Below are positions 3,607-3,663 of a DNA stretch of 64,000 nt, in pieces; within the stretch, counting starts at the first letter, position 1; each line of letters begins with the position of its first letter. Where the stretch lies: sequence record OR844765. One strand, written 5' to 3'. The position numbers and the translations under genes are program-made. This stretch comes from Escherichia phage ECO111 5-P. Below the pieces are notes generated by a model. It was given only the letters and a program-made list of their open reading frames with translations. It made no database searches and was not told the origin of the DNA.

Positions 3607-3635
3607 GTGTACACGCTTTTAGGATATGTTATTAT
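3607..3635 (+). promoter_or_regulatory. early promoter (GTGTAC -35, 17-nt spacer, TATTAT -10) with conserved tatagacctatc leader
   Basis: Hexamers at 3607-3612 and 3630-3635; member of the tatagacctatc cassette family. Confidence 0.55.
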
Positions 3636-3663
3636 AGACCTATCAAAACAAGAGGAGAACAAA

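Follow-up and report, generated by a model that had tools for sequence, protein, structure and literature searches.

Same-family early promoters of an RB69-like phage as probable recombination sites, and the putative RNA hairpins embedded in them

The repeated cassettes scattered through a 64,000-nucleotide stretch of Escherichia phage ECO111 5-P (record OR844765; hereafter the window) are predicted to be sigma-70-type, T4-like early promoters used by the host RNA polymerase, each fused to a short leader and a ribosome-binding site. Promoters of the same family behave as passive homology for the phage recombination system, and many early promoters contain an inverted repeat that would act as an RNA hairpin in transcripts arriving from upstream. 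We give a probability of roughly 80% to the joint explanation, in which RB69-like early promoters supply recombination homology through their same-family cores and carry RNA hairpins as inverted repeats.

The window shares 98.4% identity with Mosigvirus NRG-P0074 and 93.7% with RB69, has the gene order of the RB69 early region, and contains genes orthologous to early genes of T4 and RB69; these comparisons identify it as the part of an RB69-like Mosigvirus genome that holds the early genes. The cassettes share one layout (GTTTAC, N17-18, TAnnnT, N4, cTATC, a leader of about 21 nt, a ribosome-binding site and ATG) and occupy gaps of 55-70 bp between two early genes, always oriented with the genes and at early-gene starts, with the ribosome-binding site and start codon downstream. 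A weight-matrix scan returned 26 sites on the plus strand of the window and 0 on the minus strand; the corresponding counts are 47 and 1 in RB69 and, over 62 kb of T4, 17 and 0. At the 26 window sites, GTTTAC-like -35 and TAnnnT -10 hexamers are spaced by 17 +/- 1 bp (counted from TTTACA), and the predicted start lies 20-24 nt from the start codon in 20 of them; an A-rich UP-like region (-40 to -45) is visible as aaaa or ataaaa runs directly 5' of most -35 elements. Twenty-five of the sites coincide with early promoters (Pe) predicted for RB69 by Nolan et al. (2006, Virol J 3:30, Additional file 3), so that the promoters themselves were already known. The two sets have the same elements at orthologous positions, including GTTTAC at -36..-31, the A-rich upstream region and a C-rich -3..-1, and are related by a constant offset, the window sites beginning 13-15 nt in from the 5' end of each 51-nt Pe entry. 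The available part of that paper treats the RB69 Pe as one consensus, and sub-families, inverted repeats and recombination are not described there; in the GenBank records of RB69 and T4 no promoter features are annotated. Promoter activity and start sites are predicted here from the consensus and from orthology to the T4 and RB69 predictions, and the site at 9102..9159 is doubtful as a promoter. The first-pass annotation had read the repeats as promoter/leader cassettes, which the -35 and -10 elements, their 17-18 bp spacing, the strand bias and the match to the RB69 Pe list bear out.

Table 1. Predicted promoter cassettes (from the G of the -35 element to the base before ATG) and terminator-like stem-loops in the window
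Feature	Coordinates	Strand	RB69 counterpart	Details
Terminator-like GC-rich stem-loop with T run	775..812	+		GCCCCAACCGAAAGGTTGGGGCTTTTTT; just 5' of promoter 830
Early promoter	830..885	+	Pe:58138	spacer TTCTCCTC (836-843) pairs with ribosome-binding site GAGGAGAA (874-881)
Family D early promoter	1279..1336	+	Pe:57689	arms 1288-1298 and 1309-1319 around -10; z -3.8
Stem-loop after nrdC.11	3561..3580	+		GGGCCTTCGGGCCCTTT; terminator part of PeSL-type module
Family A early promoter, before RB69ORF102c	3607..3663	+	Pe:55296	
Family A early promoter, before nrdC.10	3885..3952	+	Pe:55018	direct-repeat partner of 3607
Family A early promoter	5463..5519	+	Pe:53683	arms AGGTCTAT (5471-5478) and ATAGACCT (5491-5498)
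Family B early promoter, before nrdC.5	7102..7157	+	Pe:52042	spacer hairpin CAACCA-agga-TGGTTG (7107-7122)
Family B early promoter, before nrdC.3	8122..8179	+	Pe:51019	
Weak promoter-like site, overlapping nrdC.3 end	9102..9159	+		score 14.8; absent from published RB69 list
Early promoter	14596..14652	+	Pe:43945	spacer TCCTCAATAG pairs with CTATAGAGGA at ribosome-binding site
Promoter-like site within coding sequence	15298..15388	+	Pe:43242	
Family C early promoter	16024..16090	+	Pe:42515	GAGAGA (16038-16043) and TCTCTC (16054-16059) around -10
Variant before gene 55	16942..16985	+		TATAAT-AGACCTATG, left arm ATAGGTCT; no GTTTAC; upstream TGCTTTA (MotA-box-like)
Family A early promoter within 14-bp hairpin	38014..38068	+	Pe:20537	TTCTCCAGTAGTTG (38020-38033) pairs with CAACTACTGGAGAA (38051-38064), ribosome-binding site included; -21.1 kcal/mol, z -5.6
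Early promoter, before imm.1	38585..38642	+	Pe:19761	
Early promoter, before imm	39015..39072	+	Pe:19331	
Family D early promoter, before sp	39326..39384	+	Pe:19020	
Early promoter	44692..44747	+	Pe:13466	spacer CCTCC, ribosome-binding site GGAGG
Early promoter, before modA	45329..45386	+	Pe:12829	
Early promoter, before srd	46070..46147	+	Pe:12088	
Family B early promoter, before motB.1	49211..49270	+	Pe:8947	
Family B variant, before motB	49768..49826	+	Pe:8387	spacer hairpin retained via compensatory change (CATCC...GGATG)
Early promoter within 13-bp hairpin	50746..50800	+	Pe:7443	TTCTCCTCTGGTT (50752-50764) pairs with AACCAGAGGAGAA (50784-50796); -23.9 kcal/mol, z -6.8
Family A early promoter, before cef	51325..51382	+	Pe:6863	arms GGTCTAT and ATAGACC
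Family D early promoter, before RB69ORF270c	60752..60807	+	Pe:165795	arms TAGGACTA (60765-60772) and TAGTCCTA (60781-60788); end of right arm is the predicted start site
Family D early promoter, before ndd.1	61261..61318	+	Pe:165283	
Family C early promoter, before ndd	61522..61595	+	Pe:165022	arms TGAGAGCA and TGCTCTCA; z -3.1
Terminator-like stem-loop after gene 52	63793..63812 (approximate)	+		GGGAGCTTCGGCTCCCTTTT
Family A early promoter, before motA	63831..63898	+	Pe:162713	

Four families of cassettes had been proposed in the first-pass annotation, and all were recovered at the proposed positions on the plus strand, far above chance expectation. The family A core, TATAGACCTATC, has exactly six copies, all on the plus strand, at 3633, 3911, 5490, 38040, 51352 and 63857, where 0.22 matches with at most one mismatch are expected in shuffles; the positions first given for this family (3607, 3885, 5463, 38014, 51325, 63831) are those of the G of the -35 GTTTAC. 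What its copies have in common is the -10 element, the discriminator, the start site and part of the leader, and their spacers differ. For family B, the three copies of ACAACCAAGGATGGTTGGAGTATAAT, at 7106, 8126 and 49215, do not differ from one another, and a variant at 49772 has three mismatches; family C has two copies (16027 and 61525), and family D has four, with 0-2 mismatches (1292, 39339, 60765, 61274); the chance expectation for each of these three families is 0. The variant reported before gene 55 is present, as TATAATAGACCTATG at 16971-16985, but lacks the GTTTAC -35 element. Members of a sub-family have 13-27 bp of identical sequence in common across the spacer, -10, discriminator and start region, and stand before unrelated genes. 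The four families account for only 16 of the 26 promoter cassettes. Outside the two hexamers, identity is 0.59-0.69 within a family and 0.40 for other promoter pairs, which reach 0.57 at their 95th percentile and 0.70 at maximum; the families are thus real, with boundaries that are blurred by this overlap. A search of IMG/VR with the pattern GTTTAC-N18-TATAG-N6-TATC gave, among the matches listed, mostly single-match, chance-like contigs and no usable family D set.

Two explanations of the families dispense with recombination between promoters. In one, functional constraint on very strong promoters keeps the copies alike independently, with no part in recombination or gene flux, as would suit the blurred boundaries, the general consensus common to all copies and found also in T4, and the extra conserved positions that reviews have noted in T4 early promoters (PMC2988021). 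This is improbable in view of the identical 26-27-mers that stand before unrelated genes and include spacer bases without known polymerase contact. Sub-family cores are, moreover, uniform within a genome and differ between phages (CAACCA/TGGTTG here versus CCACA/TGTGG in T4; TAGGACTA versus CAAGAYTA), and the three natural recombinant junctions within cores that are described below weaken the constraint-only explanation further. The other takes the repeats to be remnants of tandem duplications that copied each gene along with its promoter. It is in keeping with motB.1 and motB, weak paralogues (E 6e-9) that lie behind the B and B' promoters, and with a third motB-like ORF adjoining them in the RB69 annotation; no other two downstream proteins show detectable similarity, and the members of a family lie scattered over 60 kb and across the whole RB69 genome. 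Duplication is very improbable and has been set aside as the source of the families since the downstream proteins, motB.1 and motB excepted, are unrelated.

Recombination between same-family promoters makes a prediction that can be searched for in natural genomes. Neighbouring promoters of one family were joined artificially within their shared core, and natural Mosigvirus genomes were searched for the resulting junctions. In the case of three of five same-family pairs, natural phages carry the exact predicted junction as a single uninterrupted match. The family B junction of 7102 and 8122, without nrdC.5, is found in 21 natural records; the family A junction of 3607 and 3885, without RB69ORF102c, in TH58, TH12, ChristianSchoenbein and LF82-4, where it falls in the shared ATGTTATTATAGACCTATC; and the family D junction of 60752 and 61261, without RB69ORF270c, in JM10. 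Each of the three events amounts to a simple crossover of direct repeats within a shared core of 13-27 bp: relatives differ by the clean loss or gain of the gene between same-family promoters, and one chimeric promoter remains. No natural carrier was found for the B x B' (motB.1) junction or for the family A junction of 3885 and 5463, and two junctions of different-family neighbours gave no single-piece match among 60 records sampled of about 155 each. Three gene presence/absence polymorphisms among natural Mosigviruses were thus predictable from the sequence of one genome, and the earlier suggestion that the cassettes could drive module shuffling is supported for these pairs. The phage's own homologous recombination would use the shared promoter cores as crossover sites. 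Promoters are nevertheless one recombination substrate among several, since other differences from RB69 (4941-5183, 54505-55299 and the gene 61.4 junction) are indels without a promoter at their ends; the inserted gene at 197-790 has a copy of a terminator stem-loop on either side, the stem-loop at 775..812 recurring at about 166-195. T4-type phages swap small accessory genes very fast, and the mechanism of this exchange bears on host-range evolution and on the engineering of therapeutic phages.

The cassettes had also been likened to the mobile promoter/stem-loop modules of T4-type phages, known as PeSLs (promoter-early stem-loop; PMC2839356, PMC4122927). As in the PeSLs of RB49/phi1, T4/PST and KVP40/nt-1 (Arbiol 2010; Comeau 2014), an early promoter and a ribosome-binding site lie in intergenic gaps, the promoters are sigma-70-like, strong and preceded by an AT-rich region, and the cassettes flank small non-essential ORFs, with indels and replacements crossing over inside the repeated element. 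The arrangement of T2 and T4 at nrdC.11/nrdC.10 is a textbook PeSL, and a comparison of flanking gene content among relatives shows that T4, T2, APCEc01 and LF82-4 differ at this locus in what lies between stem-loop and promoter modules that are themselves the same. The likeness holds for the promoter part and for recombination but not for the stem-loop, since the upstream terminator stem-loop that defines a PeSL accompanies only three of the 26 window promoters (830, 3607 and 63831); in 19 of the 26 the preceding stop codon is 0-14 nt from the -35 element, which leaves no room for one. A further difference from PeSLs is that the crossovers mapped here fall within the promoter core, and that the repeat able to form a stem either lies inside the promoter or extends across it. 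These observations extend the PeSL idea to the RB69 group, in which a promoter core without a terminator stem-loop offers enough homology. Arbiol et al. speculated on a helper protein for PeSLs, which would suit a cassette that is an autonomous mobile element with a recombinase or target site of its own. No enzyme gene was found in association with the cassettes, nothing points to autonomous movement, the three mapped events are direct-repeat crossovers in shared homology, and the copies always have the same orientation and stand at gene starts; of all the explanations considered, autonomous mobility is the one to which we attach the least credence.

In this phage, as in RB69 and T4, about 45% of early promoters hold an inverted repeat with compensatory changes, of one of two classes: either the arms flank the -10 element, or the spacer pairs with the downstream ribosome-binding site. 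A best inverted-repeat score of at least 7 is reached by 42-48% of promoters and 8-14% of controls (P = 1.6e-4 in the window, 2e-6 in RB69 and 0.014 in T4). The pairing register was examined in an unselected set of 60 promoters from the three phages, all with 18-nt spacing; RB69 and T4 were used for covariation because a protein search with Ndd in IMG/VR gave 3 related loci, too few for this purpose. A helix joining -25..-16 with -7..+2 has 60.3% of its cells paired, versus 34-48% in slid registers, and at least six of eight core pairs are Watson-Crick in 22 of the 60 promoters, versus 0-1 in slid registers. The covariation score is 0.305, versus 0.12-0.21 in slid registers, and is reached by 0 of 500 shuffles, a significance that is inflated because the sequences are kin as paralogues and orthologues. 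In the orthologous mobD.2a and motB.2 promoters of T4 and this phage the hairpin is kept and the stems differ. Family A is mixed, three of its six copies being without an inverted repeat. The ribosome-binding-site class comprises 830, 14596, 38014, 50746 and, weakly, 44692, with stems of 8-14 bp and -14 to -24 kcal/mol and a 3' arm that contains the Shine-Dalgarno sequence; the strongest two hairpins are those of 38014 and 50746. Anti-Shine-Dalgarno-like pentamers occur in 5 of 26 window spacers, where 3.6% is expected (p = 0.002), and in 8 of 48 RB69 spacers (p = 3e-4). Stem mismatches are mostly G-T, with 10 versus 1 A-C in a free search and 9 versus 3 in the fixed register, small counts from partly overlapping sets. 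An excess of this kind would also suit a hairpin in single-stranded non-template DNA.

We infer that the inverted repeats would function as hairpins in RNA, and that they would do so only in read-through transcripts begun at an upstream promoter. In the ribosome-binding-site class, where the promoter spacer supplies the 5' arm and the ribosome-binding site is covered by the 3' arm, read-through RNA would be closed to ribosomes; RNA from the cassette's own promoter would be open, since it starts after the 5' arm and therefore lacks it. The predicted +1 does fall between the arms, for example at 38049 (arms ending at 38033 and beginning at 38051) and at 50781 (50764 and 50784). For the class that flanks the -10 element, with arms ending exactly at the start site, we can only guess at an intercistronic stabiliser or processing signal.

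The repeats could instead act as DNA, as the operator of a symmetric phage protein (one involved in early-promoter shut-off, for instance), as a cruciform or hairpin presenting the -10 strand, or as functionless quasi-palindromes kept by templated mutation. The templated correction of quasi-palindromes is a known mutational process in T4 and counts in favour of such a DNA-level role, as does a register fixed to the promoter elements, in which the arms occupy -23..-16 and -7..0 and TGnTATA falls in the loop. The mechanism of early-promoter shut-off has, in addition, been described as unexplained (PMC3014915; PMC2988021). Arm sequences of at least three unrelated kinds (families B, C and D and the ribosome-binding-site class) nonetheless share geometry and not sequence, which a fold fits better than the operator of one protein; G-T mismatches exceed A-C on the sense strand, and for the class that pairs with the ribosome-binding site an RNA reading is obvious. 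We therefore regard action at the DNA level as unlikely and favour RNA hairpins in read-through transcripts.

Sequestration of a ribosome-binding site combined with an internal promoter is known in T4 genes e, soc, 49 and I-TevI (PMC3014915). As in those genes, the 3' arm at 830, 14596, 38014 and 50746 holds the Shine-Dalgarno sequence and the predicted start of the internal promoter lies between the arms. The T4 genes have late promoters and their translation is delayed to late infection, whereas with an early promoter translation would be confined to the first minutes; the hairpins thus suggest a way to restrict a gene to that period. Tentatively, and with less than even confidence, we propose that around half of the T4, RB69 and window early promoters carry a conserved, hitherto unremarked regulatory layer, in which the RNA start would set the fate of the message (read-through RNA being silent, processed or stabilised) or which would otherwise be a DNA target of early-promoter shut-off. 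The presence of promoter-embedded hairpins in T4 as well makes them a candidate for the additional conserved positions that have long been recognised in T4 early promoters. In the open literature we found neither an earlier account of dyad symmetry in T4 early promoters nor T4 5'/3'-end maps.

An Rfam 15 search of the window gave no match at gathering score. The embedded hairpins resemble intrinsic (Rho-independent) terminators in being short, GC-containing intergenic stem-loops, but they are followed by TCAAAAC or TCTAAAAG and have no U tract, for which reason a role as terminators was rejected. The terminator-like stem-loops are separate structures, standing apart from the embedded hairpins on the 5' side of promoters 830, 3607 and 63831.

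Around the finding, a 6-kb piece of the window shares 98.4% identity with Escherichia phage NRG-P0074 and 93.7% with RB69 (both Mosigvirus), and the window is colinear throughout with the RB69 early region taken in reverse complement. Its genes, all on the + strand, come in the order rI/tk, nrdC, 55, 47-46-45-44-62-regA-43, uvsX, 41, imm, modA/B, dda, dexA, motB, 39, rIIA, rIIB, ndd, 52, motA; no Rfam family reached its gathering score within 1-64000. Every cassette has the same layout, GTTTAC(a), 17-18 nt, TAnnnT, 4 nt, cTATC and a short leader, followed by a Shine-Dalgarno sequence and ATG. 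Turned into a weight matrix, these copies yielded 26 sites on the + strand of the window and 0 on the - strand; across the complete RB69 genome the matrix found 47 versus 1, and in the opening 62 kb of T4 17 versus 0, in every genome on the strand that carries the early genes. Deposited coordinates exist for 58 early promoters that Nolan et al. 2006 predicted in RB69. Of the 21 window sites that match their own RB69 orthologue, 20 show a constant offset of 13-15 nt from the listed site's 5' end (the exception is 9102); 14596, 44692 and the four sites at the window end also correspond to listed sites, and in total 25 of the 26 are already on the list. Counted from the start site, which in that numbering is the A of cTATC, the leader measures 20-24 nt in 20 of 26 cassettes. 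The upstream stop codon lies 0-14 nt from the -35 element in 19 of 26, so that the cassette occupies the entire intergenic gap. Site correspondence, layout, strand and leader together identify the elements as already predicted, known RB69 early promoters, in agreement with the promoter/leader reading of the first-pass annotation, although their activity is inferred from sequence.

That annotation had also sorted the copies into four families, and each of its positions proved to be the first base of a -35 element. The family A core, TATAGACCTATC, has six exact copies, all on the + strand, against 0.22 expected with at most one mismatch. Three sites share one family B 26-mer without any difference and a fourth has it with three mismatches, family D has four copies and family C two, with no match to any of these three in shuffled sequence. 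Same-family promoters share 59-69% of their positions outside the two hexamers and other promoter pairs 40%, the two groups overlapping to some degree. The variant proposed before gene 55 exists as TATAATAGACCTATG, without the GTTTAC -35. At this site a -10-like TATAAT is followed by AGACCTATG, with the complementary ATAGGTCT upstream and a MotA-box-like TGCTTTA further upstream; it may be a middle-type promoter with the same kind of inverted repeat as described below.

Coordinates of promoter cassettes, inverted repeats and gene-content differences (promoters are named by the G of the -35 element)
Feature	Genome	Position	Remark
Family A	window	3607, 3885, 5463, 38014, 51325, 63831	
Family B	window	7102, 8122, 49211; variant 49768	
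Family C	window	16024, 61522	
Family D	window	1279, 39326, 60752, 61261	
Family B spacer hairpins	window	7107-7122, 8127-8142, 49216-49231, 49773-49788	GGAG directly after the stem in all four
B-related spacer hairpins	RB69	72553, 138079, 139277	AGGA loop
Ribosome-binding-site-pairing spacers	window	830, 14596, 38014, 50746	
PeSL-type upstream stem-loop	window	830, 3607, 63831	
Site before gene 55	window	16942-16985	core variant at 16971-16985
Early promoters with inverted repeats	T4 (AF158101)	57990, 20612, 7215, 6630, 2458, 50973	57990, perfect 14-bp repeat around -10; 6630, 13-bp repeat across -10 and start site, arms about -30..-18 and 0..+12; 2458 and 50973, stem-AGGA-stem spacer hairpins
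motB cluster	window	49211-51400	dexA, motB.1, motB, motB-like ORF, motB.2, cef (same order in RB69)
motB cluster	T4	6500-8300	dexA, motB.2, motB.1, motB, cef
nrdC.11/nrdC.10 gap	T2 (PV648363)	62590-63075	extra 161-aa ORF annotated RNA polymerase ADP-ribosylase
DUF7338 insert	window	197-790	ORF 229-786, 185 aa
Gene 61.4 absence	window	38563/38564	RB69 19770-19974
Extra ORF	window	4941-5183	80 aa
Extra ORFs	window	54505-55299	126 and 143 aa

What chiefly sets the families apart is a pair of complementary segments. Families C and D, and some A copies, have one arm at about -23..-16, in the spacer, and the other at -7..0, finishing at the predicted start; the loop between them contains TGnTATA. 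Family B has a 5-6 bp stem and an AGGA loop entirely within the spacer; among its copies and relatives this Shine-Dalgarno-like loop is kept while the stems vary. At four further promoters GTTTAC is followed at once by TTCTCC or TCCTC, the start of a spacer that pairs with the GGAGAA ribosome-binding site downstream in stems of 8-14 bp, reaching -23.9 kcal/mol and z -6.8; anti-Shine-Dalgarno-like pentamers are about 5x enriched in spacers. Among controls in which the hexamers stayed in place while the spacer and the downstream part were shuffled, 8-14% attained a best repeat score of at least 7, against 42-48% of real promoters (P = 1.6e-4 in the window, 2e-6 in RB69 and 0.014 in T4), shuffle statistics that are inflated by the mutual relatedness of the promoters. 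The slid-register control and changes across families are free of this inflation. The window, RB69 and T4 together have 60 distinct promoters with a spacing of 18 nt; in this complete set, unselected for repeats, the -10-flanking helix has 60.3% paired cells versus 34-48% in slid registers and a covariation score of 0.305 versus 0.12-0.21, a value that no shuffle reached; at least six of eight core pairs are Watson-Crick in 22 of the 60, versus 0-1 in any slid register. Compensatory changes include TAGGGCTA/TAGCCCTA in one RB69 copy, GAGAGA/TCTCTC versus GAGAGC/GCTCTC versus GGGACC/GGTCCC, CAACCA/TGGTTG versus CATCC/GGATG, and differences between T4 and the window phage at the orthologous promoters of mobD.2a and motB.2. 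G-T mismatches exceed A-C (10 versus 1 and 9 versus 3 in two counts), which favours pairing on the sense strand, although the numbers are small. Early promoters of T4 carry the same kinds of repeat, of which we found no earlier account in the open literature searched.

The -10-flanking class has a 3' arm that stops at the start site, and the promoter's own transcript therefore cannot form that hairpin, which would arise only in RNA reading through from upstream and, likewise, in single-stranded DNA. In T4 genes e, soc, 49 and I-TevI, long transcripts sequester the ribosome-binding site in a hairpin, and transcripts from a promoter inside that hairpin leave it free (PMC3014915). By analogy, the ribosome-binding-site class would work through the same sequestration, with an early internal promoter in place of the late one of T4, and a gene would be translated only in the burst that its own promoter gives. 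The roles considered for the -10-flanking and spacer hairpins are candidates only: a stabilising barrier for cleaved upstream message, a processing signal or a DNA-level role. Reviews describe extra conserved information of unexplained meaning in T4 early promoters (PMC2988021) and regard early shut-off as unexplained (PMC3014915, PMC2988021).

Tandem gene duplication does not account for the families, because promoters of one family precede genes that are not paralogous; the one exception is weak similarity between motB.1 and motB. The families extend across the entire RB69 genome (about 10 D copies, 4 C copies, and 4 B copies with looser relatives of B). Their T4 counterparts have cores that are uniform within T4 and unlike those of the window, for example GACAAGAYTA...TARTCTTGTC versus GATAGGACTA...TAGTCCTATC, and spacer stems CCACA-AGGA-TGTGG at two T4 sites versus CAACCA-AGGA-TGGTTG at three window sites. 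The orthologous motB has a C-type promoter in T4 and a B-type one in the window phage. Exchange among copies would produce such uniformity within genomes and divergence between them. In the motB cluster, where each gene has its own early promoter, the differing orders are consistent with permutation of whole promoter-gene units.

The suggestion that the cassettes could drive module shuffling is supported by direct comparative evidence in the RB69 group. A crossover between neighbouring same-family promoters would remove the intervening gene and leave one chimeric promoter; we therefore built such junctions, each a promoter fused in the shared core with 300 bp of flank on either side, and looked for them in 50,697 phage records. 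Three of the five same-family neighbour junctions occur in natural genomes. The 7102 x 8122 junction is present over its whole 620 nt as a single 620-bp piece, at 97-99% identity, in 21 records, all from phages without nrdC.5. That of 3607 x 3885 has a one-piece match in TH58, TH12 and ChristianSchoenbein and the same structure in LF82-4, all four without RB69ORF102c, and 60752 x 61261 has one in JM10, which has no RB69ORF270c. By sequence reading the crossovers fall in TACAACCAAGGATGGTTGGAGTATAAT, ATGTTATTATAGACCTATC and TATAGTAGTCCTA, respectively. No record carried 49211 x 49768 or 3885 x 5463, and two different-family neighbour junctions gave two-piece matches only, in 60 sampled records each. 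Each of the three differences may be a loss or a gain of the gene, and the comparison gave no sign of cassettes moving by themselves.

PeSLs, the promoter-early stem-loop cassettes of T4-type phages, consist of a strong early promoter that has an AT-rich region and is closely preceded by a terminator stem-loop, in or near which their crossovers have been shown (Arbiol et al. 2010; Comeau et al. 2014; PMC2839356, PMC4122927). The likeness to such modules drawn in the first-pass annotation holds for the role in recombination but not for the upstream stem-loop, present at only 3 of 26 sites. A further difference is the conserved inverted repeat that many window cassettes carry within the promoter, and the crossovers mapped in natural genomes fall in the core of the promoter; the function is the same and the anatomy different. 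The contents of the nrdC.11/nrdC.10 gap differ among T4, T2, APCEc01, LF82-4 and the window phage, and the additional T2 ORF sits between two complete stem-loop + promoter modules.

Relative to RB69, the window lacks gene 61.4, with a junction at a short microhomology, ATTTC, some 20 bp ahead of promoter 38585 (both states occur among Mosigviruses, in record spans of about 1057 and 1263 bp), and has extra ORFs inserted at gene starts or ends. No early promoter was found at the junctions of these indels, and the promoters are therefore one recombination substrate among several. An extra DUF7338 gene, absent from RB69 and preceded by a late-promoter-like TATAAATA, adjoins promoter 830; copies of the terminator stem-loop GCCCC..CCGAAAGGTTGGGGCTTTTT on both sides of the insert suggest that it was inserted or deleted via recombination at the flanking stem-loop.
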